Origin: a virus
Lineage: Duplodnaviria > Caudoviricetes
IMG/VR virus record: IMGVR_UViG_3300025102_000027
Span: 1 to 61,299 of that record
DNA length: 61,299 nt
Reading direction: 5' to 3' (one strand)
Shown: positions 855-28,773 of the stretch, one piece after another
Layout of the letters: the number at the start of each line of letters is the position of its first letter
How positions within the stretch are numbered: the first letter of the stretch is position 1
Notes under the pieces: model-generated
Database searches by the model: none
What the model was told of the DNA's origin: nothing
What the model saw: the letters and a program-made list of their open reading frames with translations, nothing else
Made by a program: the position numbers and the translations under genes

Positions 855-855
855 T

Positions 856-2022: not shown

Positions 2023-2023
2023 A

Positions 2024-2720: not shown

Positions 2721-3109
2721 TAAAAGAAATTTCTATCTTCAATACTGAAGTCTATGTCAGAATAATGGTGATCTTCTCTAACATTTTGTGAGTGATCAAT
2801 ATTAATTTTCCAAGGAGTTTTTGTACAATCAATATACATATAACCTTCTCCTCCATCATTATTAATCCAGTCCCACTCTATGTTATCATTAAGTAGATTA
2901 TATAATAAATCATCCCAATCTGATTCTATTTCATTATTCATTTTAACATCTATGTCTACTTGATCTCCACTTCCAGGATCTGTAACATAATAATGTGTTT
3001 CTTCTATACAACCATCATCACCTCCACCATGATAACGTACTTCTATTTTTGATATATTGTGATCTTTAATCACTTGAACTGCTAGATTTCTTTTTAGTTT
3101 TGTTTCCAT
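2720..3109 (-). CDS. DUF6878-like protein
   Basis: VRYHGGGDDGCIE and WDWINNDGGEG motifs; usual neighbour of DUF6915. Confidence 0.65.
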   Translation of the reverse strand: METKLKRNLAVQVIKDHNISKIEVRYHGGGDDGCIEETHYYVTDPGSGDQVDIDVKMNNEIESDWDDLLYNLLNDNIEWDWINNDGGEGYMYIDCTKTPWKINIDHSQNVREDHHYSDIDFSIEDRNFF

Positions 3110-3473
3110 TTTTAATTAACTTAATTTCTACACCGGGATTTTCCTTATTATATTCATAAGGTTCAAATATGGGTAGAATGTTTTCACAATTATCATCATC
3201 TATCCAATGATGTTTAACCATATCATCTTGCACTGTCTGTGCAGGATTAATATAATCAAACTTATGCTTGGATCCTCTGATGAATTTAAATGATATCTTT
3301 ACCGGTAATTCTAGTTTAGCTAATTGCTTCCTAAAACCTTTTCTAAACTGATCATAGTATTTAGCTGTTTCTTTTCTATACTTAGTTGTTGCTTTACTGG
3401 ACACGAAATATCTTCCTGTCCATCTTCTTCCATTTTTACTACTTGGTACGTTACCTGGTATAAACCATTTCAT
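3066..3473 (-). CDS. RusA-like Holliday junction resolvase
   Basis: PGNVPSSKN, FDYIN..QTVQDDM..WIDDDN, terminal PGVEI. Confidence 0.75.
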   Translation of the reverse strand: MKWFIPGNVPSSKNGRRWTGRYFVSSKATTKYRKETAKYYDQFRKGFRKQLAKLELPVKISFKFIRGSKHKFDYINPAQTVQDDMVKHHWIDDDNCENILPIFEPYEYNKENPGVEIKLIKNGNKTKKKSSSSSD

Positions 3474-4423
3474 AGAATACTTTTAAGTTTAACTTTAATT
3501 TCTTTATGAGCATCAGCAAAACCTTTCTCTTTTACAAGATCAGCAATGTCTTTGCTACTATCTAACCACGTGCCTGTAATGTCATACAACTGCTGATATT
3601 TAGTAACAGCATTGTGTCCGGCAACATCATTATCAAATAAAGTTACAACTTTTTTATACTTTTTCTTAAGATTTTCAATTATATACGGTTTTATTACAGT
3701 ATTCTCTGAGTCAGGTGCAATAACTTCAATATTGTATCCAAATTGCTTTAAACACATTGCATCTTTTAAAGAAGAACATATAATAAGATAAGGTTGATTA
3801 TATTCTAATTGATCTAATCCTTGAAGATGAGGTTTAACTTTTATGAATTTAAACTTCTTATTTCTTGGTTGGTAAATCTTATAAACCTCATTTTTAGTAA
3901 GGTAAGCATATATATAAGGTTGTTTTATAGTTATTTTGTTATCTTCTTTAACCATATGATAAAATTCAAGTGGTTTTACATTATATTTATTTAATATATC
4001 TTCACCTATGTTAAATTGTAACCAAAATCTTTTATCATATTCATTCCAATCTCTTATTTTTATACCATCAACTTTATATTTAGCTTCTGGTTTTATAGTA
4101 GATTGAGAATATTCACCTTTTTCTGTAATAAACTTATTATAATCTTGACCTATTTTAAATATTGCTTTAGAATAATCTATGCTAAACAATTCTTTAATTA
4201 AATCAATTTTATTACCTCCTTTACCTGTTGAAAAATCTTTAAACTTATATTGACCCTTGTCAACAAATACCCACATGCTTGGAGTTCTTTCTGATGGATG
4301 AAATACAGATTTAATCTGTACGTTCTGTCCATTCAGTCTTTCTGGTAAATCCAGATAGAACTCAAACACCCATGTACTTGGAACTTTAGATCCATCTAAT
4401 ATGAGATTTTTAGTACTTATCAT
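3470..4423 (-). CDS. DNA primase (crAss-type TOPRIM)
   Basis: HPSERTPS..FKDFSTG N-domain; SSLKD, LFDNDVAG, KDIAD. Confidence 0.8.
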   Translation of the reverse strand: MISTKNLILDGSKVPSTWVFEFYLDLPERLNGQNVQIKSVFHPSERTPSMWVFVDKGQYKFKDFSTGKGGNKIDLIKELFSIDYSKAIFKIGQDYNKFITEKGEYSQSTIKPEAKYKVDGIKIRDWNEYDKRFWLQFNIGEDILNKYNVKPLEFYHMVKEDNKITIKQPYIYAYLTKNEVYKIYQPRNKKFKFIKVKPHLQGLDQLEYNQPYLIICSSLKDAMCLKQFGYNIEVIAPDSENTVIKPYIIENLKKKYKKVVTLFDNDVAGHNAVTKYQQLYDITGTWLDSSKDIADLVKEKGFADAHKEIKVKLKSIL

Positions 4424-4431
4424 CTTTACTT

Positions 4432-4470
4432 AAAATAGAAAAGGGCAGCCGATTCCGGATCTGCCCCTCT
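4432..4470 (-). terminator. Intrinsic terminator
   Basis: Minus strand GGGCAG-12nt-CTGCCC followed by TTTTCTATTTT. Confidence 0.7.
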
Positions 4471-4496
4471 CTTGTTAACTTAATAATTATTAATTA

Positions 4497-5207
4497 TTAA
4501 AGCTCAAAATCATCACCTGATCCTGAGTTTGCTTTAAATGGAGTTTCTACACCATTAGATGGAGCATCTTTTTTAACTAAAGCTTTAACATGTACAGCAC
4601 GATCAAACTTAAGTAATCTAGAATTCTCTTTATCTAACATTTCCATAGCAATACCATCTTTAGATATACGTGGCAAGAAAAGATCATTATTTATATAACC
4701 TTCTTTATTTTCCCACTCACGACCACCTATACACATATTAATAAGTTTAGAACCTCCCATTAAATCATCACATTCTTTCATAAAATCTTCAATAGTTTGT
4801 GCATTTATAGAATCTAATCCATCTCTCATCTCTAATGTTTCAGCTAAAGTAATCATGTGCTTTAAGATCTCTTGATCTCTGCTAATTTCTCTACCACTTG
4901 GTAATGTAGTGTCTTTAAATGGAAAAGGACTAATTCTTACTCTACCAATTTGGCCATCATATCTACCTTTAGATTGATCATTATAGTCTCTAAAGAAACC
5001 TTCAAAGTCACCTCCAATAGGTGCAGTTTCTATGTGTAAATGTATATTGTATGAATCAGCATCATACGGAGTTTGATCTAATGTAATAGAATTAATTTTT
5101 ACTACATGGTTTCCTGGATCTAATACAGGTTTTGTACGTCCGCTTCCTGCAGACATGTCTTTAGTATTTAACATAACTTTCTTATTTTTTAAATTTGTTT
5201 CACTCAT
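4497..5207 (-). CDS. Putative ssDNA-binding/recombination protein
   Basis: Downstream of Sak4-like ATPase; PGNHVVKINSI start, acidic-aromatic C-tail DDFEL. Confidence 0.5.
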   Translation of the reverse strand: MSETNLKNKKVMLNTKDMSAGSGRTKPVLDPGNHVVKINSITLDQTPYDADSYNIHLHIETAPIGGDFEGFFRDYNDQSKGRYDGQIGRVRISPFPFKDTTLPSGREISRDQEILKHMITLAETLEMRDGLDSINAQTIEDFMKECDDLMGGSKLINMCIGGREWENKEGYINNDLFLPRISKDGIAMEMLDKENSRLLKFDRAVHVKALVKKDAPSNGVETPFKANSGSGDDFEL

Positions 5208-5212
5208 CTTAA

Positions 5213-5896
5213 TTAATTTTCATATTCAATAATTGCATTTTTAACAACTTTTAATGAATTATCTATACGTGCATCATCAAACATTCCTGCTGGTGATTTA
5301 CAAGTATTTTCTCCATTATTAGTTGTTTCAAATACATAACTTAACTTATCATTTTCATCTTTGACAACTTTACCAAAGAGAACTATAGAAAATAGACCTT
5401 CCAAAGTTAATGTATTATCTATCATTTTACCAATAGTTTTTGCTTTAACTTTTCTGTGTCCATTCACGTCTGTTGATTCTTCTGAATGTGTCAAAAAGAA
5501 TATATATAAATCATCTCTCATATCTTTAGGTAATTTAGCTACTTGTGCTAAATTAGCTGCAATTTGAGTAAATTTATCATATCCTTTTTCATTAGCTCTG
5601 TCAAAGTATTCAAAACTTGACATATATTGCCAATCATCTATTACTAGATTCTTTATATGAGGCATTTTATCATTAACATGCATCATAGCTTTTATAATTC
5701 CTGCAGAACTAGACACTGGTGTCATATTTCCTTTTTGATTATCTTTGCTAATTGCTGTATAATTCTTTTTCCATCCTTTGAATGGTAAAGGTTTATTTGC
5801 AATGTTAATAATAAATGTCTCTTTAGGATCTAAATCCCTAATTGATGTTGATTTACCTGACCCGGAGTCAGCTATAACTAATACACTTTGTGCCAT
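5213..5896 (-). CDS. Sak4-like / AAA_24 P-loop ATPase
   Basis: ADSGSGKST, KPLPFKG, LVIDDWQY, KTIGKMID, CKSPAGMF. Confidence 0.8.
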   Translation of the reverse strand: MAQSVLVIADSGSGKSTSIRDLDPKETFIINIANKPLPFKGWKKNYTAISKDNQKGNMTPVSSSAGIIKAMMHVNDKMPHIKNLVIDDWQYMSSFEYFDRANEKGYDKFTQIAANLAQVAKLPKDMRDDLYIFFLTHSEESTDVNGHRKVKAKTIGKMIDNTLTLEGLFSIVLFGKVVKDENDKLSYVFETTNNGENTCKSPAGMFDDARIDNSLKVVKNAIIEYEN

Positions 5897-6375
5897 TATT
5901 TACGGTTTATTAATTTTTTGTTTATACTTAATAATGCTCTTTCAATTCCAATAAGAACATCTACTATTTCTCTATTTTCTGGATCTTTAATAAATTCTGG
6001 TTCCTTAATAGGTGAATTTCTATCAGTAACATCATTCATTACTTTTAATTCAGATACAGGTACAATATGTCTTTCAAATCCTGAACTACTTGTTACTTTT
6101 TCATATTCTTCAGCCCAATGATCATTATGTTTTAATAAATATAATGTTCTTTTAGAATCTTCTGAATCATATTCAATACTAACAAATTCTGTGTAAATAT
6201 CTTTACCTTTTTGTAATTCACTTGGAAAGAAAGATACATGTAACTCATCTTTTCCTGATGGTCTATATGCCATCTTTGGTATATATAGTGCATTTATATT
6301 TCCAGATATTTGGAAATAATCTTCATGCTCTTTTCTTAATTCTAATACTTTTGCTTTACGCTCTTGTGGTGTCAT
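5896..6375 (-). CDS. Hypothetical protein
   Basis: 159-aa ORF coupled to neighbours. Confidence 0.75.
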   Translation of the reverse strand: MTPQERKAKVLELRKEHEDYFQISGNINALYIPKMAYRPSGKDELHVSFFPSELQKGKDIYTEFVSIEYDSEDSKRTLYLLKHNDHWAEEYEKVTSSSGFERHIVPVSELKVMNDVTDRNSPIKEPEFIKDPENREIVDVLIGIERALLSINKKLINRK

Positions 6376-6378
6376 ATA

Positions 6379-7335
6379 TTATCTTCTTTGTTCTTGAGGT
6401 GGTGTATCCATCTCAGTTATTTGCATTCTTTCAAATTCTGCTTTGAAAAAACTCATTCTTGTATCACCATTTCTTGCTTTTAGAAAGTGTAATACTAAAG
6501 TTCTGTCATTTTCTATTATATATCTATCAGGTCCATAATATCTAATCTTTTGTTTAGCAGGCCGATTGATACCTATTAAAGTATCAGCATGTTGTAACAT
6601 TGCATCTGAACCAAATATATCTGATTCTAATACATAGTTACCATACTTACCATTTACTGCTCTATCTGGATTATCTATATTTCTATTTAATTGTGATAAA
6701 CATATAAACATACAAGGGTAATCTCTTTTACATTGAGTAAAAAATTCACCTAATTCAAATAACATATCTAATCTGTTATTCTGATACGGTGCTCTTTTTA
6801 CTAAAATGCTATGATCAAGAGTTATAATAGTCTTCTTACCTTGATGTAAGTTCATATATATATCTACTTGATCTCTCATTTGGTTAACAGTCATTGGTGT
6901 AGTAATAATATCTACAGGACTTTTAATTCTATCTTTAGCATATATATGACATTTGTCAAATGTATCTTTAGATAAAGTAGTTCCTGCACTACACAGTTCT
7001 TTATAAGTTTTACCAGTTAAAGATGAAAACTCTCTTAATGCTGTAGTTCTACCCACCATTTCAAAACTAAATTCTAATACTCTATAGTCTTCAGCTGGAT
7101 TTAGAATGAAAGACTCTCTTACTATCTGATCCTTGATCAAAGTTTTACCTGATCCAGGACGTCCCCCGATGACTGTAAGTGTATTCCATTCTAATCCCTC
7201 TGTTATAGCATCATTAAATTTAGGCCATGGAGTTTGTATAGATTTCTCTTGTCCACTTTGCCTAGCAAGCATATATTTTAAAGCTTCATTAAAAGATTGA
7301 TATTGTCCATCCCATGCTGGTTTAATCTTACTCAT
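6379..7335 (-). CDS. DnaB-like replicative helicase (C-terminal domain only)
   Basis: GGRPGSGKT, SFEM, TLDH, LSQLNR, KARNG. Confidence 0.9.
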   Translation of the reverse strand: MSKIKPAWDGQYQSFNEALKYMLARQSGQEKSIQTPWPKFNDAITEGLEWNTLTVIGGRPGSGKTLIKDQIVRESFILNPAEDYRVLEFSFEMVGRTTALREFSSLTGKTYKELCSAGTTLSKDTFDKCHIYAKDRIKSPVDIITTPMTVNQMRDQVDIYMNLHQGKKTIITLDHSILVKRAPYQNNRLDMLFELGEFFTQCKRDYPCMFICLSQLNRNIDNPDRAVNGKYGNYVLESDIFGSDAMLQHADTLIGINRPAKQKIRYYGPDRYIIENDRTLVLHFLKARNGDTRMSFFKAEFERMQITEMDTPPQEQRR

Positions 7336-7931
7336 ACTACTTTTTCTTTAAATGGTTGATTATCATCTAGTTCTACACCATCTTTAATCATATCACAATA
7401 ATCAGCTAGTTCAGAATGCTTTACTTTATATTTATCTGTTTTACATATAAAATATTGACTTGTTTTCATATACATATAGTCTTTATCTTTATACTCATTT
7501 ACATACATGACTGTTGCATGTGCAACTTGTTCCCATGTATAATCATATGTTTCAAAAAACCATCTAAATGCATTTTCTAATGTTTTAACATTTTGTCTAC
7601 CTGGTTTACCACTTGGTAATTTACCTGCAGGCCATGCTTCTCTATATGTTTTAAGCATGTCCACATATCCTTTACCTAATAACTGTGTAGTAGTTCTTTT
7701 TTTAGAAACTTTAAAGTATTGATTGTATTTAACACAAATGCTTTTACCTTTTGGTGTTATTGAATACATTGGTCCTTCTTTATATACTACCAAACCTAAT
7801 TTAATTAATGTTCCTACATCATATTGTTTATTCTGTATAGGAAAAGAAATACTATTCTTTATCCCATACAAGAGAAGTAATTGGTTCGGTGTAAGCTTGT
7901 CTTTTAATATCTTCTGGAATAGCTCTAACAT
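7332..7931 (-). CDS. Putative replication initiator/helicase loader (wHTH)
   Basis: wHTH-like N-terminus (LIKLGLV..YSITPKG), YREAWP, YMKTSQYFI; directly upstream of helicase. Confidence 0.5.
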   Translation of the reverse strand: MLELFQKILKDKLTPNQLLLLYGIKNSISFPIQNKQYDVGTLIKLGLVVYKEGPMYSITPKGKSICVKYNQYFKVSKKRTTTQLLGKGYVDMLKTYREAWPAGKLPSGKPGRQNVKTLENAFRWFFETYDYTWEQVAHATVMYVNEYKDKDYMYMKTSQYFICKTDKYKVKHSELADYCDMIKDGVELDDNQPFKEKVV

Positions 7932-8403
7932 AATTCTTAATATTTTTTTTTAGTTCATCATATGCCTCACATACTTGAGGATCACCTATTTCTAATAAAC
8001 CTTGTGTTTGTTTAATACTATGTATCACACTTGCATGATGTTTATTAATGTGTGCCCCTGTGTATTGTAATGTAAAACCCATTTTATTACACATAAAACA
8101 AAAGAGTTGTTTGAATATTACAAATTCTCTTTTTCTGCACTCTTTTCCAAGAGTTCTCCATCCTTTATATTCTGGATATAGTGTACGCATTGTACCTAAT
8201 ACTAATTTTTCAAGTATTTCTACTGTTTTAATTTGATGGGCTGATTTCATTGCTTGTATTTCATCTTCCCATGTTTTAACATCTACAACGATGTCTGACT
8301 TATCACTTATAAGTATACTAATATTTTTTTCATACTTTGATTCAAATTTGTTTTTAAACTTTTGAATCTCATTGGTCATTTTTAAAATATCCTCTTGAAA
8401 CAT
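7852..8403 (-). CDS. DnaA domain IV-like HTH protein
   Basis: REFVIFKQLFCF..TGAHINKHHASVIHSIK resembles DnaA C-terminal R..V..RQ..MY..IG..F.RDHTTVLHA. Confidence 0.6.
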   Translation of the reverse strand: MFQEDILKMTNEIQKFKNKFESKYEKNISILISDKSDIVVDVKTWEDEIQAMKSAHQIKTVEILEKLVLGTMRTLYPEYKGWRTLGKECRKREFVIFKQLFCFMCNKMGFTLQYTGAHINKHHASVIHSIKQTQGLLEIGDPQVCEAYDELKKNIKNYVRAIPEDIKRQAYTEPITSLVWDKE

Positions 8404-8424
8404 ATTGATTTATTTTAAGGTTTG

Positions 8425-8452
8425 TAAAGATACTAAATTTATTGTATCTTTA
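8425..8452. promoter_or_regulatory. Inverted repeat between divergent genes
   Basis: TAAAGATAC-10nt-GTATCTTTA between starts at 8403(-) and 8475(+). Confidence 0.55.
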
Positions 8453-8474
8453 TGTATAATTAAATACTATTATA

Positions 8475-8972
8475 ATGGCTAAAAAGAAAAAAACTAAAAA
8501 AGAAGAACCTTTAAAAGATCCAAAAATTTTAACTACTGAAGACAGAGAAAAAGCTGTCAAAAAAATGAATGAACTTTCAGGTTCTCAAGTGCTTACACTT
8601 CCTGATGAAGCAATTATTAATATTCCTGTATCAGGATTCTTTAAAAAATCTGTTGAAGGTGTTATGTATTATCTTTTAGAAGATTTAAATGCAACACAAA
8701 TAATACACGTTATGGAAAGAGTTAAAACAGGTTTTAAAGATATTGATCCTGAAACTGTTACAAGTAGAGAAAAAGCACTTTGGTGTATTATGACTCTTTT
8801 ATCTGAAATACATTGGCAAGCTGATGCTCAAGGTAAAAATGAAGTACAAGATCAAACAGTTGGTAATTCTATTGCAAGTTTTATTTCTGGAATAGAAGGT
8901 GCAAGTAAAGAAATAGGTAAAGAAATAGAAAAAATTCAAAAATCTAAAGAAGATAAATCTAACGAAGATTAA
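8475..8972 (+). CDS. Hypothetical protein, lone plus-strand gene in early arm
   Basis: 165-aa ORF with phage-like codon use, convergent with 8959..9342. Confidence 0.75.
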   Translation: MAKKKKTKKEEPLKDPKILTTEDREKAVKKMNELSGSQVLTLPDEAIINIPVSGFFKKSVEGVMYYLLEDLNATQIIHVMERVKTGFKDIDPETVTSREKALWCIMTLLSEIHWQADAQGKNEVQDQTVGNSIASFISGIEGASKEIGKEIEKIQKSKEDKSNED

Positions 8973-9342
8973 TTCCTGAAAAGTCACCTATCTCAATTAA
9001 TTCTTGAATTACAAGATTTAATTCAGATTTATTACACTTAGCAAAAGATTTGCAGTACTCTGATCCCCCCTTGTTTATGCAGAGTCCTGCTTTTCTTTTG
9101 ACTTGTAGTTTCATTTCACCAAAACTATATCCTATGTCATTAGCTAGTTCTCTAATCATAGCATGAATCTTTGCAATTTGTGCAGCAGTTCCATTCTCAC
9201 TAGATATACTAGCAAATATTTCTATTTTAGTTTCTTCAGGTAACTCTTTAATCCAATTTTCATAAAGAGTTCCTTTAGCTTTTATAGTGTGAATGAGTTT
9301 TCCATCCACTTTTTTTAATATTGAAAAGAAATTATTTTTCAA
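8959..9342 (-). CDS. NinB-like recombination protein
   Basis: TAAQIAKIHAMIRELANDIGYSFGEMK..KSFAKCNKSEL pattern; TTG start. Confidence 0.55.
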   Translation of the reverse strand: MKNNFFSILKKVDGKLIHTIKAKGTLYENWIKELPEETKIEIFASISSENGTAAQIAKIHAMIRELANDIGYSFGEMKLQVKRKAGLCINKGGSEYCKSFAKCNKSELNLVIQELIEIGDFSGINLR

Positions 9343-9417
9343 AATATAAATGTTAATACTATTGTTAATACAAATATAATTATAACAATATATGGTAAAT
9401 TTTCTTCTATCATATCA

Positions 9418-9678
9418 TTAAGAATTTTCATGATTTTCTGTTATTTCTTTTTCTATTTCATACATGACATCAGGACATAATTCATAGAAAAAATTAGCCA
9501 TATCAACTTGTTCATCAGTTGACATATTTATTTCATCATTCCATAAGTAAACAGCATGTACTTCTACTGTTGATCCTGTACCAGGATAATCATGCGTAGC
9601 TGGTTCAGCTGGCACGTAATTATATTCTATATCTAGATCCCATTCATTTATTTTTTTTGAGTACGTATTCCTTGGCAT
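9418..9678 (-). CDS. Hypothetical protein
   Basis: 86 aa; YNYVPAEPATHDYPG motif common in small phage proteins. Confidence 0.7.
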   Translation of the reverse strand: MPRNTYSKKINEWDLDIEYNYVPAEPATHDYPGTGSTVEVHAVYLWNDEINMSTDEQVDMANFFYELCPDVMYEIEKEITENHENS

Positions 9679-9796
9679 TTTTCTTTTTTTTATTATCTAT
9701 ATTATTCTCTTTAAACCAAATGTTCATAAATTCATGCGGTGTACCTTGAAAATCTCTACGTATCATTTCAAGATATATTTCTTTCATTAATCCCAT
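9644..9796 (-). CDS. Small hypothetical protein (50 aa, not in ORF track)
   Basis: Manual translation MGLMKEIYLEMIRRDFQGTPHEFMNIWFKENNIDNKKKKNAKEYVLKKNK fills the gap between genes. Confidence 0.6.
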   Translation of the reverse strand: MGLMKEIYLEMIRRDFQGTPHEFMNIWFKENNIDNKKKKNAKEYVLKKNK

Positions 9797-9950
9797 TTTT
9801 AATATTTTTTAACATTAAACGTGCAGGAAGTACTTTAGTAAAATTACAAGTTGTACAACACCTTCCTTCTTTATTATATAATGGTGATGGATTATGTCCA
9901 TAACCTTCAAATTCTTCTTTACATATGCAACAATTTTTATTTTCTTCCAT
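9768..9950 (-). CDS. Small Zn-finger protein
   Basis: CCIC..GYGHNPSP..GRCCTTCN. Confidence 0.7.
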   Translation of the reverse strand: MEENKNCCICKEEFEGYGHNPSPLYNKEGRCCTTCNFTKVLPARLMLKNIKNGINERNIS

Positions 9951-10004
9951 AATGATAAAACCAACAGCTAAAGCATATTATTTTAAATATTACTAGCTCT
10001 ATGC

Positions 10005-10121
10005 TCATTTTTTAATTTTTTTATTTATCCAACAACTTATTTGTGTTGTTACATACATTCCTAAAGCAAATGAAGCCCCCATTAATATGAAGACTCCTGC
10101 CCATTCTAATAAATTTACCAT
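10005..10121 (-). CDS. Small membrane protein (38 aa)
   Basis: Manual translation MVNLLEWAGVFILMGASFALGMYVTTQISCWINKKIKK. Confidence 0.5.
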   Translation of the reverse strand: MVNLLEWAGVFILMGASFALGMYVTTQISCWINKKIKK

Positions 10122-10591
10122 CTTTTATAACTATTTATATTATTTTTAATTTTTCTTGTAAAATATCTTGTCAAAGAATCTGGACAATCATATTCCCAAT
10201 AACCATCTCTATGTACTATAACACTATAATCATGCATATTATAATTAGGATGATCAAATGTTGCAACAATACGTGGTTTTCCATAGTCTAAAAAATATGA
10301 AGCACTAACATTTCTTCTTTTCTTTTGTAATACCCATTCATCTCTTCTTGGAACATATCTAAAATGCATTTCCATTACAGTATTATCACTCCATCCATAA
10401 TTATGATAATAATAATTATTATTACCACTAATTGCATCTAATAATGCTATACCAAACCAAAAATTATAATTAGGTTTTTGTACATGATGATTATGATGCT
10501 TATTTTGATGTTTATGTTTATTTTTATGTTTTGGTTTTTGAGCAAAACTAATACTTGATATTAATAAAGCTAATAATATTACTTTTTTCAT
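10115..10591 (-). CDS. Signal-peptide protein with His/Lys-rich N-terminus
   Basis: MKKVILLALLISSISFA-Q Sec signal followed by KPKHKNKHKHQNKHHNHH. Confidence 0.7.
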   Translation of the reverse strand: MKKVILLALLISSISFAQKPKHKNKHKHQNKHHNHHVQKPNYNFWFGIALLDAISGNNNYYYHNYGWSDNTVMEMHFRYVPRRDEWVLQKKRRNVSASYFLDYGKPRIVATFDHPNYNMHDYSVIVHRDGYWEYDCPDSLTRYFTRKIKNNINSYKRW

Positions 10592-10593
10592 TT

Positions 10594-11703
10594 TTAACTA
10601 TTTAAAGGATTATAAAATTTAATTTTTTCTTGATCAAATGTAGATAGTGCAGCATTAACCCACTTAACATCTTGACTATTTTTATAACACAATATATGGC
10701 AAATTGCAGTCTCACTAGGATTTAGGCGCAGCAAACGTCCTATTCTTTGTGCTGACTTACGCTCATTGCCATATGCATGCATTATAATACCTTGTTTTAA
10801 ATTAGGTATTGTTACACCTTCACTTAATTGTAATACACAAGACAGTTTATCTATTCTACCATCACTGAATAACTGTAAGTTATCTTCTGATGCACTATTT
10901 TTAGAATGAAAACTGTGTTGACACATTCTATCCGCTTGTGCTTGTGTATTAGCAAAGACAATACATTGATCACTAATATTTCTCATCAAACCTTTAGCAT
11001 ATGCTTCTTTGGTTGGATAATCCATCATAGCTTTCATTCTCATAATAGAGAGGAATTGTCTTTGTTTTGGTGTTTGAGCATCTCCCAATGCTCCTGTATA
11101 GTACTGATAATCAGCTAGTTCTGAAGTATACCATGTTCTTCCATCTTTAGTAGATTTCTTCACATTCTTTACTTTAGATAAATCTAATTCATGTACTATA
11201 ATTTGATAGTCATTAAGTATACTGTTGTCAGCTGCATCATCTACGCTAAATGTATATTTAACAGGACAATACTTATTAACCATCTTTAATTTTTGTCCAT
11301 TTTTAGGTGGTGTACCGGTTAAGCCTAGTATTCTACCATTAAATTCAGATAAAAACTTTTCATGTGATTCTAATAAACTATGACATTCATCTAAATAAAC
11401 TATATCATAATCTTTTGGATTCTTTTTATTTAATGATAAATATGTTGTATAAATTATATGATCTTCTCCTATTTTTTCTTTACCTAATAGTTCTAGTTCT
11501 TTGATCCAAGCAGTCATAACTGACCATTTAGGAACAACAACTAAAACTCTTATAAATGGATCATATAGTTTTAGCAAGTGTTGAATAGCAATTCTTGTTT
11601 TACCAACACCCATAGATATACCGAGCGTTGCTCTACTGTTATTAATTGCTATGTCTAAAGCATCTTTTTGTACTTTATCTCTTGAGATTTCTTTCACTTC
11701 CAT
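10594..11703 (-). CDS. Superfamily 2 DExH helicase
   Basis: MGVGKT, LDECH, GLTGT, QRIGRLLR. Confidence 0.9.
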   Translation of the reverse strand: MEVKEISRDKVQKDALDIAINNSRATLGISMGVGKTRIAIQHLLKLYDPFIRVLVVVPKWSVMTAWIKELELLGKEKIGEDHIIYTTYLSLNKKNPKDYDIVYLDECHSLLESHEKFLSEFNGRILGLTGTPPKNGQKLKMVNKYCPVKYTFSVDDAADNSILNDYQIIVHELDLSKVKNVKKSTKDGRTWYTSELADYQYYTGALGDAQTPKQRQFLSIMRMKAMMDYPTKEAYAKGLMRNISDQCIVFANTQAQADRMCQHSFHSKNSASEDNLQLFSDGRIDKLSCVLQLSEGVTIPNLKQGIIMHAYGNERKSAQRIGRLLRLNPSETAICHILCYKNSQDVKWVNAALSTFDQEKIKFYNPLNS

Positions 11704-11967
11704 TTAATTTAAACTTATATCATTATCTTTTAATAGTTTATATAATTGAGAGTTAGAGTTTATTTCATCTATCTCTTTCATTCTTTTAACTAATTCATCA
11801 TATTGACTATCACCAATAGAGTGCATTTCTTGTCCATCAACTTCATTTATTATATGTAATAAAGTTTCTTGATCTATAATCTGAGGATTCTTTGACAAAA
11901 ATTGTGCAAGATGTAATAAATCTTCAGGTGGTAAGTTGTTTGCTAAATATTTTAATAATTCTATCAT
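11704..11967 (-). CDS. Hypothetical protein
   Basis: 87-aa ORF in operon. Confidence 0.65.
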   Translation of the reverse strand: MIELLKYLANNLPPEDLLHLAQFLSKNPQIIDQETLLHIINEVDGQEMHSIGDSQYDELVKRMKEIDEINSNSQLYKLLKDNDISLN

Positions 11968-12227
11968 ATTCTTTTAATTGAAAATCCTAATTCTTCTGCC
12001 TCTATTGGATTTAATTCTATCCAATTGTGACAAGTTCTACATACTGATAACCAGGTACTTACATCATTATGATATATACCTCTACCTTTTTTATGATGTA
12101 CATCTGTTGATTTACTTCCACATCTAGGAAGAGCAGCTTGACACATAGGATAGTCATTAAGGAATACCCTCCTTAATTGACTATACTTTGCATCAATTTT
12201 CTGCATCTTCTTTGATTTCTGTCTCAT
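11964..12227 (-). CDS. HNH endonuclease
   Basis: CQ..C..STDVHHKKGRG..LSVCRTCHNWI. Confidence 0.8.
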   Translation of the reverse strand: MRQKSKKMQKIDAKYSQLRRVFLNDYPMCQAALPRCGSKSTDVHHKKGRGIYHNDVSTWLSVCRTCHNWIELNPIEAEELGFSIKRI

Positions 12228-12733
12228 TTTACACTTAAATAGTTTTTTGGTAATAATCCTACACCTATAAACTTTAGAATAACATCTTCATAAGTTAAAC
12301 CTAACTCTTTTAAAGTCATTTTATTCTTATAATCAGGTAAATATTCAAAAGGCATTTCATATATTTCTTTACCTAATTCTGATTTAGCAAATATACGAAA
12401 AATTGGTTTAGTTTGTTGAAATGAAACATATTGTTTAAGCTCATTTACTACATTTTGACCACGCTTCCAAACTTTAGTTATTCTTCTTTTCTTGTCCCAA
12501 TGCATATTTTGTATTTCATCAGATTTATACATCTTTAACCCATGCAATATCTTTTTAAATAAAAAATGTTGTTTAGGATTTAATTTAGTATAAGTAAAAT
12601 GTTTTTTTGGTAATTGTACAAATAATTGATATTCAGACAGCATACCTAGATAAGAATACCTAGCTATTTGTCTTTGTTCCTCTAATTTATTCAAATGAGG
12701 TCTTAAATTTTCATATTGATCTTGAGTAAGCAT
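12224..12733 (-). CDS. Hypothetical protein
   Basis: 169-aa ORF ending GLLPKNYL. Confidence 0.75.
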   Translation of the reverse strand: MLTQDQYENLRPHLNKLEEQRQIARYSYLGMLSEYQLFVQLPKKHFTYTKLNPKQHFLFKKILHGLKMYKSDEIQNMHWDKKRRITKVWKRGQNVVNELKQYVSFQQTKPIFRIFAKSELGKEIYEMPFEYLPDYKNKMTLKELGLTYEDVILKFIGVGLLPKNYLSVK

Positions 12734-12761
12734 ATTTTTTTGTTATTATTAAGAGGTTTAT

Positions 12762-12798
12762 AAAAAAGAAAAGGGCTAACCATGACGAAAGCCCTTCT
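12762..12798 (-). terminator. Intrinsic terminator
   Basis: Minus strand AAGGGCT-12nt-AGCCCTT followed by TTCTTTTTT. Confidence 0.65.
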
Positions 12799-12884
12799 CA
12801 AATGAACAATTTAATCAAAAAGATGTGAGGTAACAAAGTCCACATCTAATCAAATCAAGTGTGATCAGTCAAAGTTGATCAGTC

Positions 12885-13481
12885 TTATAATTCAAAAGAT
12901 TCATTTTCCATTACTACTTCTTCTTCCTGAGTTTCTTCAACTACTTCTTCTTTCTTTGCTTTCTTATCAGATTTTTTTTCTAATAATTCATTAAGCTCAT
13001 TTTGATTTATAGTTTTAGATTTCTTAGGAGCAGCACCACCATTAGCTTCTCTGATTTCATCACCATTAACATGTCTTATAACATTATCTGTAGACTGTCC
13101 TGATGGATCATAAAATACTTTTCTATATATAGGAAGTTCTTCACCTGTATTAGTGTCAACACCTTTACATACTATACCAGTGTCACCAGCTATTTTAAGA
13201 TCTCTATCTGGATCATTATCATTAAATGGAGTCATTTGTTCTTGTACATATAATATACCAGCAAGTTGTTGATTACCTTCATAACCTAATGATTGTAAAT
13301 CTTCTACAGTACCATGTACTAATGTACTTAATACTTTTCTGTTTACCCATCCATTTGTACCAAAAGATGTTTTTTCCTGAGTTAATCTTATATGTCCATA
13401 TTCTGGATTATTTTTAGATACTCTAATTGCATTACCTTGTTCGTCAGGACTTATCCTAACATTACTTGAATTTGTTTTCAT
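12885..13481 (-). CDS. Hypothetical protein, acidic C-tail (possible ssDNA-binding)
   Basis: 198 aa ending MENESFEL, similar tail to 4497..5207. Confidence 0.65.
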   Translation of the reverse strand: MKTNSSNVRISPDEQGNAIRVSKNNPEYGHIRLTQEKTSFGTNGWVNRKVLSTLVHGTVEDLQSLGYEGNQQLAGILYVQEQMTPFNDNDPDRDLKIAGDTGIVCKGVDTNTGEELPIYRKVFYDPSGQSTDNVIRHVNGDEIREANGGAAPKKSKTINQNELNELLEKKSDKKAKKEEVVEETQEEEVVMENESFEL

Positions 13482-13528
13482 GTTTAAAAAATTATTTATT
13501 AAAATTATTATTGATTGTGTGTGTGTGA

Positions 13529-13804
13529 TTATGTATCATCACGATGAAAGTATTTATCTTCCAACTTCTCTATATCCTTGATTTCATCAAGATTGGGTTC
13601 TCTTTCATTAAATTCCCAAACTTCTGGTTCATCAGGTTTTTCTCTTCTATTATTTGCAAGAGTAGATTTATAAAAAGGATTAGTTATATCAGATGTGAAT
13701 TCTTTACCAAGACCATTGAGTTCTCTAAAATCTTGCTCATCAAGCTCAAGATATTGTTCTAGAGACATCTCTATTATTCTTCCGTTAGGTAATTGGTAAA
13801 TCAT
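13529..13804 (-). CDS. Hypothetical protein
   Basis: MIYQLPNGRIIEMSLEQYL..; 91 aa. Confidence 0.7.
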   Translation of the reverse strand: MIYQLPNGRIIEMSLEQYLELDEQDFRELNGLGKEFTSDITNPFYKSTLANNRREKPDEPEVWEFNEREPNLDEIKDIEKLEDKYFHRDDT

Positions 13805-13884
13805 AGCACAAAAGTATACTATTTTATTTACTTTACATAGTCAAAAAACTTGACTAGTGCATAAATAGAAGAGTAGTATAGCTA

Positions 13885-14124
13885 TCATGCTACAATAAAT
13901 TTTCTACCAAACCTCTTTATATACCCTTTTTCCTTCAATTCTTTAATTTTTCTACTGATTGTACGTGGATGCACATCACACAGATCAGCTAAAGTGTTTA
14001 CTGAAGGAAAGCAGGTTCTATTCTTATTACAATAGGTGCATATAACAGCATATACACCTTTTGCTTGTATAGATAGTTCTGGATCAGTAACTACATCTTT
14101 ATTTACTATTCCAAAGGTTTCCAT
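13885..14124 (-). CDS. Helix-turn-helix protein (HTH_36-like)
   Basis: LSIQAKGVY..CFPSVNTLADLC..RTISRKIKELKEKGYI. Confidence 0.8.
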   Translation of the reverse strand: METFGIVNKDVVTDPELSIQAKGVYAVICTYCNKNRTCFPSVNTLADLCDVHPRTISRKIKELKEKGYIKRFGRKFIVA

Positions 14125-14564
14125 AATCCCATAATATTAGATCTCTTTACTCTTACTTCTTTATATTCTGTATCTCCATCATCTTTAATTCTTAAGCAAG
14201 CATGTATTATATATTCACTTGCATAAGGATTAACTCCATCTTGATAATTAGTATCATTTATGATTCTACCTTTAATATGACCATGCTCATCCATAAGTTT
14301 TGCATCCTTCATCATATCCTCTTGACATAAATCTTTAAGATCATATTTATTATCTTTAGGATCAAACCATACAAGATCTGTTTTTTTAAATAGTATGTGA
14401 TCTCTTTCATTTACTATTTCATCTAATATTGCACCTCTTTGTTCATCACTGAGATGTGATATCATCATGTTTAATATAAAGTGTGATGTATTGTGTCCTA
14501 ATATACCTGTACATTCCATGATTGTATCTTTTACTATTTTATATGTTATTTTTTCTATATTCAT
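14106..14564 (-). CDS. Hypothetical protein
   Basis: Probable start MNIEKITY at 14564; upstream extension is low-complexity NNNN. Confidence 0.65.
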   Translation of the reverse strand: MNIEKITYKIVKDTIMECTGILGHNTSHFILNMMISHLSDEQRGAILDEIVNERDHILFKKTDLVWFDPKDNKYDLKDLCQEDMMKDAKLMDEHGHIKGRIINDTNYQDGVNPYASEYIIHACLRIKDDGDTEYKEVRVKRSNIMGLWKPLE

Positions 14565-14705
14565 TTGATTATTATTATTATTTTTATTTTTATTCAGTAA
14601 AAGAATGGACAAAGGGAATTAAATCCCGTAGCTATTCTTTCATTAACTCCCTCTATCACTACTCACTCAAACAGAACAGGCATCTCAACCCGCTCAACTA
14701 TTACC

Positions 14706-14743
14706 AACAGTACTATAACATAAATTAATATTATAGTACTGTT
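14706..14743. repeat. Perfect 13-bp inverted repeat
   Basis: AACAGTACTATAA-12nt-TTATAGTACTGTT. Confidence 0.8.
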
Positions 14744-14758
14744 AGTTAGACATCAGTG

Positions 14759-15379
14759 TCACCATGCAACAACTTTATTTGCATTATATCCTTTATCATC
14801 AGCCTCAGATTTTTTTACTAACACCATTCTACTAATATCCATATCTTTAAACTGTTTTCTAAATCTAGAACCAGCTTCTTGTAAATCTCTCAACATATGA
14901 ATATTATATTTATGACCAAACATATTTAGACCATGGAATTCCACTTCTTTTTTTACACTAACTCCCCATAAACTTAGAGTAAGATCAGTATCATTATCAA
15001 CTTCAAATTCAAAAGGACCAATTATATTATGATAAACTTTAATTTCATTCATTTTTTTCTCCATCCATTTAGGTGCATCATATGTGTGTTCAAATTTTAA
15101 CACAGTTGTTTTACTATCAGTATAATAAATACTTGATACCATACCACCAAAGTATTTATTATGTATAAATAGTTTTTTACCTTCATGACATATACTAACA
15201 GATGCATCATGTCCCTTAAAAGACTTACCTCTATCAACTTTTAATATATTACCATTCATATTATCAGCATGATATATCTCACCACTTGGTCTTTCTTTCT
15301 TTGTACTTGTTATTCTTTCATTTAGATCTGTAAGTACTTCTAGAGCTAATTTTGTATTAGAGTATATAAATTTTTTCAT
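14759..15379 (-). CDS. Hypothetical early protein
   Basis: 206-aa ORF. Confidence 0.75.
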   Translation of the reverse strand: MKKFIYSNTKLALEVLTDLNERITSTKKERPSGEIYHADNMNGNILKVDRGKSFKGHDASVSICHEGKKLFIHNKYFGGMVSSIYYTDSKTTVLKFEHTYDAPKWMEKKMNEIKVYHNIIGPFEFEVDNDTDLTLSLWGVSVKKEVEFHGLNMFGHKYNIHMLRDLQEAGSRFRKQFKDMDISRMVLVKKSEADDKGYNANKVVAW

Positions 15380-15435
15380 TAATTATTATTTAAAAGTGAG
15401 TACATATTTTTCACGCAATATGTTAGCGTTATGTC

Positions 15436-15472
15436 ATTAGTAGAGACAATCCTCTCTATCATCTCTACTAAT
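15436..15472. repeat. 11-bp inverted repeat
   Basis: ATTAGTAGAGA-15nt-TCTCTACTAAT in intergenic region. Confidence 0.7.
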
Positions 15473-15495
15473 AGTGTGTTACTGAGTAAGTGTGA

Positions 15496-15699
15496 TTATT
15501 TAAATAACCACTTCCAAAATCCCAGCGTATAAAGGAGATATGTTACTATCTCAATTATAAGAAAATATGTCTCTCCAAATGGCTCAGGTGCAAATAGTAT
15601 ACTAAATGCAAGAGCAAGTGCAAGACATGTTAATACTGTTGCAAATGCAGGTGCTAAGATAAGAATAGCTATCTTAAGCGGTAAAATAAGATTCTTCAT
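15496..15699 (-). CDS. Small two-TM membrane protein
   Basis: 67 aa, two hydrophobic stretches. Confidence 0.7.
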   Translation of the reverse strand: MKNLILPLKIAILILAPAFATVLTCLALALAFSILFAPEPFGETYFLIIEIVTYLLYTLGFWKWLFK

Positions 15700-15759
15700 A
15701 ATTATATATTTAAGTGAACATTAATTAAATGATTTACTACAGTTTACTCTGTTATAATA

Positions 15760-16157
15760 AATAGTACAGTGAGTGATGAGCAAACTACTCTCACAATGAT
15801 GACTCTTGGGTTCCCCCTTAGACTTCATTAACCCTATGCAGGCGATTAACCTTTATACTCATTATGTTCTCAATATTGATTAGATACCAAGGTTATAACA
15901 TTGTATAGTTCCGTATCAGAACTTCATAAGTTTGCCAGGACTTTAAGATGGCCCTATAGCATTAACGCTTTCAAGATAAGTTATTGTTATCTTGGTTTCA
16001 TCATACTCCAATTGATATATTTAAATAAGATCATACAGTCATTCAACTATACGATCACCCATCATAGGCCAATCAGATGCACTAACCCTCTTGAGAAAGT
16101 TTATTGTGCGACACTCAGGATACGTTGGTAGCTAGCCGTTGTATCCCTTGTACTATT
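15760..16157 (-). ncRNA. Candidate ~400-nt highly structured ncRNA
   Basis: Nested closing helices and internal hairpins whose plus-strand A.C mismatches are G.U pairs on the minus strand. Confidence 0.65.
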
Positions 16158-16267
16158 AAATTAAATAGATTAAGTTACCTAATAAGACTCTGGCGGCTTC
16201 TTAATTTTATAACATCCTGCTTCATTATGCGTTATATACATAAATTGAATGTTATCTATTTATAAAG

Positions 16268-16345
16268 TGGAGATGCTCAGAATTGAACTGAGATACTACA
16301 TAGTACCACAAGTGGTCTTCTATGTAGGCAATACCTATCATCCCC
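16268..16345 (-). ncRNA. tmRNA-like tRNA-like domain lacking the mRNA-like domain
   Basis: GGGGATG/CATCTCC-A acceptor with G3.U70 and A73; stemless D-loop ATAGGTATTGC; CTACATAG/CTATGTAG helix; T-arm CTCAG-TTCAATT-CTGAG; no anticodon loop. Confidence 0.75.
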
Positions 16346-16796
16346 ATGATTTAAACAGTTTTCTCTGTTAGCTTTCCTAGTTCACTATTACCGTGTGTGG
16401 TTCCTAGGTGAATTTGTCCACTTTATATCTGCCCATACTATTAAATTATGGTACAGTTTACTGTTAGAGTTTTTAAGTGTCTCACAACACAAGTTAACTC
16501 AATAACTCTGGTCAGTTCTGTTATTATCCGTCTGATTAGATTTGCGGTTACTATGTCTCTTATCCTATAGAGAGAGAACATAAAGACTATATACTAGCAA
16601 CTACCATCACAGTAGTTTATTGCAGAGAACACCCTTCACATCTCATCTAGGCATTTTGATTGAGCAAACTCACTAGCTATAGCTATATTATTTATTATGG
16701 TTCATTCCATTATATTTTGTGGTGTTAAGTGGTATATTGTGGGAAATAGACTACACTTTTATTGACACACGTGCACAATTAATTAAATAATTGCAA

Positions 16797-17059
16797 CACT
16801 AAACAGAGATTTACCTACATTAGTACATAATGTAACCATTATCACAGGACTTAGGACTAAGTTGAGATAAAACTCTGTTTGAGTGAGTGTCTCCATGCAC
16901 TTTGTTGGGCAAAGTACGTACATTGTTGACGGACAACAATCAAAGCTTACTTGTGGGCTATCAACTCCACAATTGGGCTTTTGGATTACCTTGAGTAACA
17001 CACGAGTAATCTGCTATGGTAGGCCGTGCGGGAGAGGCATTAGCTATTGCTAATCCTCT
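16797..17059 (-). ncRNA. Candidate hairpin-dense structured RNA / 3' UTR of first early gene
   Basis: At least seven consecutive perfect 5-8 bp stems; strand inferred from context only. Confidence 0.5.
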
Positions 17060-17367
17060 GACTCCTGCTTGTCATAGGGCTCTGCCCAAAACAAGCCTGT
17101 CTCTTCACCAGATTCCTGGTCAAGGACTGGAGAATCAGACAATCTGATTCCCTCTAAGACTTGATTTGGTTTAAACCCGTATGAACGAGGATCAACTGTT
17201 TCACCAGTTTCCTCATCCATAATGACAAGAAGACCAAACTTAGCGTTCCCTTGGGTACGCACAGTTGCAGTCTTACCATTGAAAGTCCTTGTGACTTTAT
17301 CAATGGCAGCAGTCTTGACGATAATAGTATTACTATCATCGGCAACCTTGTGGAATAAAACATCCAT
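17050..17367 (-). CDS. First gene of early arm, hypothetical
   Basis: 105 aa, visibly GC-richer than the rest; A-rich leader AAAAAACCAA-ATG. Confidence 0.75.
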   Translation of the reverse strand: MDVLFHKVADDSNTIIVKTAAIDKVTRTFNGKTATVRTQGNAKFGLLVIMDEETGETVDPRSYGFKPNQVLEGIRLSDSPVLDQESGEETGLFWAEPYDKQESED

Positions 17368-17398
17368 TTGGTTTTTTAAGACTTCCCTTGTTTAATTA

Positions 17399-17449
17399 GG
17401 GGGTGGTAACCCACCAATTTTAAGCCGGGGAGCAGAACAATGGGACCCC
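17399..17449. promoter_or_regulatory. GC-rich element at divergence point of early and late arms
   Basis: GGTGG-TAAC-CCACC hairpin and GGGG..CCCC in an otherwise AT-rich genome. Confidence 0.45.
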
Positions 17450-17507: not shown

Positions 17508-17642
17508 ATAGGTAGGGGGACTAAATAGACACCCAATCCTTTAGTAAAAGGTTTGTGCATTTATATATAACCCTTAGTGTAATGTTGAAGAGTGTGTTTA
17601 ATTATGCCTCTTCTTATGTTTAATTTTATAAATTTTTTAATT

Positions 17643-28261: not shown

Positions 28262-28773
28262 TAAAATTATTTGATATACAAAACGGTAAAGTTGTTCCTA
28301 GTGAACACTGTTATACATTAAAGTCTTTAAAGACTATTATGGATAAATATCCAGATACATATTTATCTGTATATCAATATGTATTTTACATGACATGTCC
28401 AGATCCAGATTTAAATCCGTTCTTTAATATGCCTGAACATGAAAAAGAAGATCTTATTATAGAAGAAATTGAATTTGAAGAATCATCTGAAGATGGAGCT
28501 ATAAGACATGCTATTGATACATGTAAAGAATTATATGAAACTCCAACCTTTAGAGCTTATAAAGGTATTAAGGCTATGTTAGATAGATTAGCTAGGTATA
28601 TGGAAACAACTTCTATAGATCACGGTAGGGATGGAAATCTAACTGCTTTAGTTAATACTGCTGCTAAGTTTGATCAAATTAGACAATCTTTTAAAGGAGC
28701 GTATACAGATATGAAAAATGAACAACAAAGCTCTGTCCGTGGTGGGCAGGGATTAGCTTATGATCAATTATAA
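28255..28773 (+). CDS. Conserved crAss-like protein, terminase small subunit candidate
   Basis: Helical protein ending VRGGQGLAYDQL shortly upstream of TerL. Confidence 0.5.
   Translation: MLVKLFDIQNGKVVPSEHCYTLKSLKTIMDKYPDTYLSVYQYVFYMTCPDPDLNPFFNMPEHEKEDLIIEEIEFEESSEDGAIRHAIDTCKELYETPTFRAYKGIKAMLDRLARYMETTSIDHGRDGNLTALVNTAAKFDQIRQSFKGAYTDMKNEQQSSVRGGQGLAYDQL

Follow-up and report, generated by a model that had tools for sequence, protein, structure and literature searches.

We analyzed a 61.3-kb virus fragment from IMG/VR (record IMGVR_UViG_3300025102_000027, positions 1 to 61,299), here called the window, whose completeness was estimated at ~50%. An open reading frame (ORF) of 548 amino acids (aa) matched the Crassvirus major capsid family (Pfam Crass_capsid, E 5e-31), which identifies a crAss-like phage, and all five sequencing runs that held at least half of the stretch's sampled words were labelled marine metagenome; one of the five may be the sample of origin. 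The minus arm (1-17367) encodes helicase, DnaB-like and primase domains, and the plus arm begins at 17592. Near the head of the minus arm, 1350 nucleotides (nt) free of credible genes separate the stop codon of a 105-aa gene, at 17050, from a 67-aa ORF that starts at 15699; the next-biggest gaps in the window are ~224 nt or less and the minus-arm genes are tightly packed (ORFs of at least 60 aa). We found that this interval is likely a minus-strand array of accessory RNA genes in a hypervariable region of a marine crAss-like phage. It carries module A, an independently folding RNA of ~400 nt that forms a new RNA family, and module T, an element that is best filed with transfer-messenger RNAs (tmRNAs) reduced to the tRNA-like domain (TLD). 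The features, roughly in the order of reading on the minus strand, are as follows.

17050-17367 (-): gene of 105 aa, upstream of the array on the same strand
17033-17059 (-): hairpin that covers the 105-aa gene's stop codon and opens module M0 at its 5' end (RNAalifold, alignment A6, columns 7-33)
16751-17049 (-): module M0, ~300-nt structured non-coding element, from identity, indels and compensatory pairs
16783-17001 (-): ORF of 72 aa with a GTG start, inside the gap; does not look like a gene
16536-16750 (-): module M1 (alignment A7, 20 sequences)
16438-16535 (-): spacer G, with direct repeat D16 (alignment A10)
16453-16465 (-): degenerate copy of the boundary motif, in spacer G
16371-16437 (-): module B, small conserved element directly 5' of a boundary motif copy
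16346-16372 (-): first copy of the boundary motif, with its core at 16355-16369, stops 10 nt short of T
16267-16345 (-): module T, tmRNA reduced to the TLD, 79 nt, from the Rfam tmRNA model, its fold and model R1
16158-16265 (-): module S, ~100-nt element between T and A, conserved in relatives
15760-16157 (-): module A, multi-helix RNA of ~400 nt closed by a terminal stem; 15 homologues, covariation
15901-16131 (+): ORF of 76 aa with a TTG start, inside the gap, antisense to module A
15730-15756 (-): second copy of the boundary motif, with its core at 15739-15753, separated from A by 4 nt and placed 54 nt ahead of the 67-aa ORF's ATG

A sequence-only reading of the window had described ~1.35 kb without credible ORFs that held a hairpin-dense RNA, an alanine-identity tRNA-like RNA and a ~400-nt ornate RNA, punctuated by repeated mini-hairpins. 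Each of these was found again: the gap is the biggest in the window and its two internal ORFs fail as genes, M0 and M1 make up the hairpin-dense 5' part, T has the alanine identity elements G3:U70 and A73, A is closed on itself, and the mini-hairpins are the two boundary motif cores with the degenerate copy. The placement at the head of the arm was off by one gene, the 105-aa gene.

We used a 19-mer that was invariant in the first five copies of module A to scan metagenome contigs. This search returned 16 stretches, namely 13 full A copies, two copies cut at contig ends and one chance match in a GC-rich bacterial gene. With identical copies removed, A had 15 distinct full-length homologues of 79-92% identity (alignment A4). 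RNAalifold folded them into 107 pairs in 17 helices with a terminal stem of 9 bp closing the whole RNA. Pairing was possible in 98.6% of 1605 cells as against 94.3% in shuffled alignments, and double (compensatory) changes occurred at 20 pairs as against 13.1; neither value was reached in any of 500 shuffles. When partners were slid by 1-3 columns as a control, only 0-4 pairs had double changes and 35-47% of the cells paired. The double changes were concentrated in helices 7, 8 and 14, and two further covarying hairpins lay outside the consensus fold. The fold contains 220 G-U cells, so that the antisense strand would pair only 84.9% of its cells, and the sense fold was stabler than the antisense fold in all 15 copies (mean difference 18.7 kcal/mol). 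The z-scores of single-sequence folds were modest and not decisive alone (A sense -2.2, A antisense -2.8, T -2.5). A covariation scan of all column pairs of A had too much noise to show pseudoknots.

Rfam 15, which includes GOLLD, ROOL, HEARO, OLE, RNase P, group I/II introns and 6S, gave no match for A, M0, M1, B or S. At E up to 10 the array modules had only chance-level matches to small nucleolar RNAs and microRNAs, and the loci of nine relatives yielded tRNA only at the gathering score. Searches of all collected loci with nhmmer (A alignment) and with model R2 (A 5' domain, 142 positions) detected no divergent relatives of A, and an exact 26-mer of A occurred in only two viral contigs, both known already. 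No sense-strand ORF of at least 20 aa was common to the A homologues. Literature searches surfaced no description of an A-like RNA, which is not proof of absence. We regard A as a new RNA family. Three other identities were considered for it and dropped, namely RNase P RNA, a group I intron and the coding half of a split tmRNA: models gave no match, motifs that looked suggestive pair locally, and T closes on itself. Two short conserved stretches of A were also noted. The 19-mer (16100-16118, minus strand), invariant in every A copy, contains GUC GCA CAA UAA in an exposed-then-paired stretch, that is, an alanine codon, one more codon and then a stop; we take this to resemble the resume context of tmRNA, and it may be coincidence. 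The loop of helix 3 (~16128-16133) holds a conserved, self-complementary UAGCUA.

Module T was aligned by the Rfam tmRNA model over positions 1-374 with 292 of them deleted, and the acceptor, D region, P2 and T arm were covered (32.1 bits, E 7.4e-12 for a small search of 131 nt). Its acceptor stem of 7 bp (GGGGAUG pairing with CAUCUCC) includes G3:U70 and is followed by A73 and C74, which is the identity set of alanyl-tRNA synthetase (AlaRS). A 5-bp T stem carries a 7-nt T loop, and the anticodon-arm position is occupied by an 8-bp helix (P2) topped by a small hairpin, with no 7-nt anticodon loop. There is no mRNA-like region, tag frame or pseudoknot. A canonical tRNA was rejected on account of the missing cloverleaf with a 7-nt anticodon loop and of clan competition, in which the tmRNA model outscored tRNA; a mini D-arm was rejected as well, as it clashes with P2 and is absent in the viral contig L081. 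The four copies of T are 96-99% identical with sharp ends and unrelated flanks. The 3' 21-mer of T recurred in L081, which is unrelated, with the same acceptor and T arm and a different, covarying helix.

We built a covariance model (R1) from these five sequences. On the 60.6-kb genome of Mycobacterium phage DS6A it gave one match, at 28475-28561 (+) with 54.9 bits (E 8e-13), in the unannotated gap between gp33 and gp34, and is a candidate for the element listed in print. That listing, 'Mycobacterium phage DS6A (TLD only)', stands in Hudson, Lau and Williams (2014). Nawrocki, Petrov and Williams (2025) repeat it and describe tag-less tmRNAs of mitochondria and two plastids. Strong inhibition of tmRNA in E. 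coli, perhaps through titration of SmpB, is reported for 'a similar molecule'. Because of the single R1 match in DS6A, T is best filed with the TLD-only tmRNA of this phage, a known kind of molecule. The literature that our searches surfaced described no TLD-only tmRNA in crAss-like phages, and this is not proof of absence.

R1 also identified a second type of T-like sequence in the plus arm of the same phage group (L012 10575-10655, L031 7649-7729 and L036 10586-10666, all +). In L012 the element occupies the slot that tRNA-Arg(TCT) has in the collinear L037 (71% over 1561 nt). A scan of other viruses with a degenerate 3' pattern supplied 80 loci among the matches listed (at least 120), and in these R1 gave at least 10 strong matches (41-64 bits) and at least four weaker ones (30 bits). 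The resulting T-like genes, at least 14 among the matches listed, are 78-96 nt long and none was called by ARAGORN; four true tRNA-Ala genes in the same set reached only ~24 bits. The model-fitted alignment of the T family paired in 96.5% of cells compared with 74.2% after shuffling and had double changes at 13 of 20 pairs, a covariation never reached in 500 shuffles, and the G-U at acceptor pair 3 was kept in 20/20 aligned members. The unrelated viral contigs with T-like genes (L089, L143, L107, L114, L134, L123, L120, L156, L159, L127, L085/L104/L132/L161 and L081) have a G+C of 0.43-0.62. In L143 a tRNA-Met begins 3 nt downstream of the T-like gene, and a tRNA-Thr lies nearby in L134.

The layout of the array was examined in relatives. 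The 105-aa protein led to two identical contigs, and 54 synteny-anchored loci were reached through a conserved plus-arm protein of 123 aa. M1 was found in 20/54 loci, A in 5/54, S and B in 3/54 each, and T in 2/54 and in one metagenome contig; these counts are lower bounds, as many loci are cut at contig ends. M1 is conserved across the phage group, and modules are present or absent independently among relatives. From M1 to the next conserved gene, a 168-aa ORF, the distance ranged from 270 to 2447 nt across 28 mapped arrays, and this interval held A, B, T, S, tRNA-Arg(TCT) and small ORFs in combinations that varied from array to array. In four relatives a tRNA-Arg(TCT) is the last cassette before the 168-aa gene (L010 5135-5209, L013 2680-2754, L017 1005-1079 and L020 4529-4603, all on the minus strand; ~70 bits with the Rfam tRNA model in L010, L013 and L017, which were scanned); the window is without it. 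By blastn, identity to L002 is 90% for 16174-15739 and 94.6% for 16437-16346; L002 has the two in swapped order, and the flanks are only ~69% identical.

The places where the arrays differ share a motif. It is ~25 nt long, with a core AACAGAGTAAACTGT that is usually followed by wTAAATCA. At up to one mismatch the core occurs twice in the window against 0.74 expected, and at up to two mismatches it had 42 matches in 781 kb of loci, 38 of which lay within arrays, all on the RNA strand. In 12 cases a small ORF had its ATG 41-70 nt past the motif start, and T begins 24 nt after a motif start. Cassette junctions fall inside the motif, and module order and content differ at it. We read the boundary motif as most likely a cassette promoter or processing signal and, in addition, a crossover or recombination site. 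Two of the arrays, L019 and L030, come from one 245.6-kb IMG/VR contig (6990-23358 and 132891-149259) and differ, one having T only and the other A only; this contig probably joins two related phage genomes.

We also analyzed the remaining modules. M0 is 95.7% identical to L076/L070 and 71% to L002/L068. Compensatory changes occurred in 16 of its 86 predicted pairs, in an alignment of just three sequences that includes a near-identical pair; among the few positions that differ between the two 96%-identical copies, several are paired changes, and the covariation is strand-specific, as in A. The hairpin that opens M0, across the 105-aa gene's stop codon, has 11 pairs, two of them with a compensatory change (three sequences). 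M1 has conserved blocks on its 5' and 3' sides and, between them, a hypervariable long hairpin. In the 5' block lie three CCAC repeats ~10 nt apart, an inverted repeat and a 10-nt palindrome, UAUAGCUAUA (~16676-16685), which was invariant in 20/20 sequences. The variable part forms a single long hairpin in most of the 20; its sequence is almost unrelated between relatives, its base is conserved, and the sense strand is the stabler one in 19/20. M0 and M1 are probably also new RNA families. The self-complementary UAUAGCUAUA of M1 and UAGCUA of A could serve as kissing contacts or protein-binding sites. B (93-95% identical in L002/L068 and L024, at other array positions) and S (~92% identical in L024, L014 and L027) are short and conserved with little variation, and a 20-codon micro-ORF in S is interrupted by a stop in three relatives. 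Most of spacer G had no homologue among the relatives' loci.

Public sequencing runs gave a weak hint of expression. Among 24 runs listed, six RNA libraries held 7-12% of the stretch's words, and the contigs of four were examined. A was partly covered in 4/4 of them, including a 393-nt contig over 15826-16207; M0 was covered in 3/4 and the 105-aa gene in 4/4. One RNA-library contig lacks S. In X19 a contig joining T to A had only 27 letters on the T side, below the 31-letter rule. Places that no contig covers carry no information, and the other 20 runs entered the analysis by their labels only.

The surroundings of the array were searched for genes and signals. G+C is 0.35-0.39 over 16-18 kb against ~0.28-0.30 in the flanks. 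The 72-aa GTG ORF had no tblastn match in the 79 loci searched, and its region has indels of 1, 5, 11 and 12 nt relative to the relatives. The antisense ORFs over the 15 homologues of A vary in frame, start and end. Reading through TAG, TGA or TAA singly opened at most 103 codons in the gap, and the flanking genes are all open under code 11. PHROGs had no family for nine ORFs flanking or inside the gap, both internal ones included; blastn in distant mode with 15400-17400 found no match in 50,697 phage records, and a protein-anchored search with a 206-aa ORF found no relatives. ARAGORN, and Rfam at gathering scores, called nothing in the window, and a scan of the window for sigma-70-type promoters and terminators showed no excess over shuffles. 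A sigma-70-like site, TTGACA-18-AATAAT (11/12), lies at 16762-16791 (+), inside M0/M1 and opposite to the RNA strand. The 67-aa ORF directly past the array (15496-15699, minus strand) is strongly hydrophobic by eye, and is therefore probably a small membrane protein; homologues of 44% identity stand behind the same boundary motif in L002. A 2792-aa ORF at 52298-60676 (+) had no Pfam match and no DFDxD motif, and so it is not obviously a crAss-type virion RNA polymerase, whose gene may sit in the missing genome half.

Taken together, the interval is a non-coding, mosaic stretch with structured RNAs on the minus strand and a tmRNA-derived member, and an array of accessory RNA genes is its likely nature. 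On this account the array is read from the 105-aa gene through M0 and M1 into the cassettes B, T, S and A and then into small ORFs; the cassettes are bounded by the ~25-nt motif (AACAGAGTAAACTGT + wTAAATCA) and are gained, lost and reordered there between relatives. Transcription, processing and timing of the array RNAs, and all of their functions, are inferred. T is a tmRNA stripped of its pseudoknots and tag-coding part. Host RNase P, 3' trimming and CCA addition would free a ~77-nt RNA from it, in which G3:U70 and A73, the identity set for AlaRS, would be retained together with the tRNA-like domain that binds SmpB. This RNA could then compete with host tmRNA for SmpB and stalled ribosomes and thereby damp rescue and tagging. 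We regard these three steps against host ribosome rescue as evenly balanced between right and wrong. That the phage tampers with host protein synthesis in some way is probable, judging from A and T.

The sequence-only reading thus fared well in kind, as an RNA-only locus linked to translation, and is partly supported overall, the operon, its processing and its early timing being putative. Its RNA-only nature stood as far as it was tested, given the lack of conserved ORFs, the strand-specific covariation of A and M0, the stabler minus-strand folds of A and the M1 hairpin and the tmRNA-derived element. A role in host translation is plausible at least for T, as kin of TLD-only tmRNAs. The system it took to be undescribed divides: A, M0 and M1 are without an Rfam match, whereas the tRNA-like element is of a known kind.

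Several observations weigh against this account. The alignment of A is shallow (mean column identity 86%), and kin sequences can beat shuffles without structure; a real signal is favoured by the slid-partner control and by the clustering of double changes in helices 7, 8 and 14. Most relatives lack A, which is hence dispensable, and T is directly upstream of A in only 3/15 A contexts. In Cellulophaga phage phi14:2, a marine crAss-like phage, A had no detectable relative (best score 9.2 bits with filters off). The score of T is below the Rfam gathering score of 47, as is expected when three quarters of the tmRNA model are lacking, T was filtered out of the larger scans, and ARAGORN called no tRNA or tmRNA tag at T with default and intron settings. 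The T-family alignment leans towards the model to which it was fitted, the four true tRNA-Ala genes are among its members, and since the close copies of T are nearly identical the covariation comes only from distant members. No SmpB gene was found in the window (Pfam SmpB). Scans of the genomes of 185,579 species with the 19-mer of A and a 23-mer of T returned 0 matches each and so no clue to the host. The M1 5' block may equally be a site that acts at the DNA level. The RNA-library contigs show no strand, ends or level, may hold DNA, and come from runs chosen via this stretch.

Among the other explanations, the one that survives best is that the modules are selfish or decaying elements of no use to the phage, T being a deletion pseudogene of tmRNA and A a mobile RNA element, for instance an intron-like or ribozyme remnant, that passes from phage to phage. 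Their patchy spread would fit, as would modules that are 80-99% identical where the flanks reach only ~69%, the variation of module order between relatives and the full-length tmRNA-like gene in a comparable gap of phi14:2. The compensatory changes, however, show selection on the fold of A, and TLD-only forms recur with the same architecture in different sequences, all with G3:U70. Nor did A match any Rfam intron or ribozyme at E up to 10, and it splits no host gene, as its flanks are unrelated between contexts. We consider this explanation quite unlikely.

In a second explanation the stretch is a control sequence at the DNA level, a replication origin or a promoter/operator cluster at the arm switch, and the hairpins are cruciforms or protein sites. 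The G-U pairs, however, make the folds strand-specific, A pairing far better in the sense than in the antisense orientation, with a stabler sense fold in every A copy and in 19/20 M1 hairpins. The stretch does adjoin the strand switch and the cumulative GC-skew minimum, the M1 5' block has its CCAC repeats, inverted repeat and invariant palindrome, and the sequence of the boundary motif is kept, a trait of protein-binding sites. Against these stand the tmRNA origin of T, the genuine tRNAs in the same arrays and the optional nature of A, T, B and S, which is unexpected for an origin, and DNA-level control of the whole stretch is very unlikely.

A mostly precedes a small ORF, directly or after a motif copy, and phage genes in a hypervariable region need regulation; A and its neighbours could accordingly be long cis-acting leaders, similar to riboswitches or attenuators, of the downstream small ORFs. 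The ORFs after A nevertheless differ by context (57 to 94 aa, different families), a motif copy and sometimes another module intervene, A is closed by its terminal stem in the manner of free-standing RNAs, and 400 nt far exceeds known leaders. A leader function is highly unlikely, and in the reading that we favour, the array of RNA genes, A is not a cis-regulator.

That the gap conceals small or recoded protein genes has next to no chance: some crAss-like phage lineages recode stop codons and the start of an antisense ORF of 20-38 aa (MSDEQTTLTMMTLG...) is present in all 15 A copies, but the MSDEQTTLTMMTLG segment is invariant at all codon positions and the peptides frameshift apart afterwards, no sense-strand ORF is shared by the A copies, single-stop read-through and code 11 gave the results described above, and neither internal ORF matched a PHROG or, for the 72-aa ORF, a relative by tblastn.

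Large bacterial and phage RNAs with complex folds are rare, and each class discovered has led to biochemistry that was new. As a candidate, A is clean, being ~400 nt long with at least 17 helices, strong covariation and defined ends, in a phage group with a cultured relative. By analogy with other large phage RNAs that neighbour tRNA genes we suggest, tentatively and with considerable doubt, that A works as they do; it would be a trans-acting scaffold on the translation apparatus or part of a higher-order RNA assembly. In the boldest version, which is unlikely, A would be a new class of large ornate RNA that acts jointly with the mini-tmRNA, the tRNA and M1 as an RNA-only toolkit against the host ribosome, and the ~25-nt motif would direct both recombination and expression in an integron-like system of RNA genes. 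If so, A could, for instance, be a trap or scaffold for factors of ribosome rescue or translation, or multimerise like ROOL and GOLLD. The tag-less tmRNA has so far been named in print for one phage, and the further genes found here, at least 14 among the matches listed, suggest that it is widespread among environmental phages. Were that the case, inhibiting or hijacking ribosome rescue would be a general phage strategy.

We compared the array with known systems. The TLD-only tmRNA of DS6A and T are both ~80 nt long with a tmRNA acceptor stem containing G3:U70, a tmRNA-type D region, a T arm and a short P2 helix capped by a small hairpin, and both are without pseudoknots and a tag frame. The tag-less tmRNAs of jakobid mitochondria and some plastids are of the same kind as T. 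Unlike that of DS6A, the phage of T is crAss-like and marine with a host that is presumably among the Bacteroidota, and T sits within an RNA array, as a cassette that a conserved motif precedes.

GOLLD and ROOL, whose function is not known, are described as large ornate RNAs of phages and prophages that often lie near tRNA islands, and the analogy with them drawn in the sequence-only reading fits the context of A. Like them, A is large, multi-helix and phage-borne, lies beside tRNA or tRNA-like genes and has no known protein partner. Unlike them it measures only ~400 nt, as against ROOL at nearer 600 nt and GOLLD at often >800 nt, and it is unrelated in sequence and fold by the Rfam comparison.

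For phi14:2, a preprint reports two long intergenic non-coding RNAs (lncRNAs) near the left genome end (g004-g006), of unknown function, which exceed most mRNAs in abundance already at the earliest time point and which persist. The RefSeq record of this phage (L080, NC_021806) has a 1.7-kb gap at the lncRNA region. At 4031-4500 (+) ARAGORN called a tmRNA with the tag GSSVQKLAMVA, which scored 46 bits with Rfam (E 1.6e-16, gathering score 47); this call lies inside the lncRNA gap and is absent from the record's feature table. Both phages are marine and crAss-like, with an ORF-free gap among small genes that has a tmRNA-scoring part, full-length and tmRNA-like with a tag frame in phi14:2 and TLD-only in the window. 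No sequence or model similarity was found between phi14:2 and the window's modules, and the flanking genes were not detectably homologous. The array nonetheless offers a sequence-level handle on the unexplained early lncRNAs of phi14:2.

Phage T4 has a tRNA cluster with the stable RNAs C and D, which are tRNA-sized or larger, have no known function and arise from common precursors; the phage and the sequences are unrelated to those of the window. The PeSL repeats of T4-type phages, a promoter plus a stem-loop, reportedly described by Arbiol et al. in 2010 as 'mobile regulatory cassettes', are said to bound optional genes of a hyperplastic region and to mediate their shuffling. The boundary motif resembles them as a short conserved repeat that borders optional, reshuffled genes (38 array copies), and it differs in its sequence and in its promoter activity, which is only putative here. 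Its cargo, unlike that of PeSL, includes RNA genes, and the shuffling of RNA genes as cassettes at a conserved motif is the unusual feature here.

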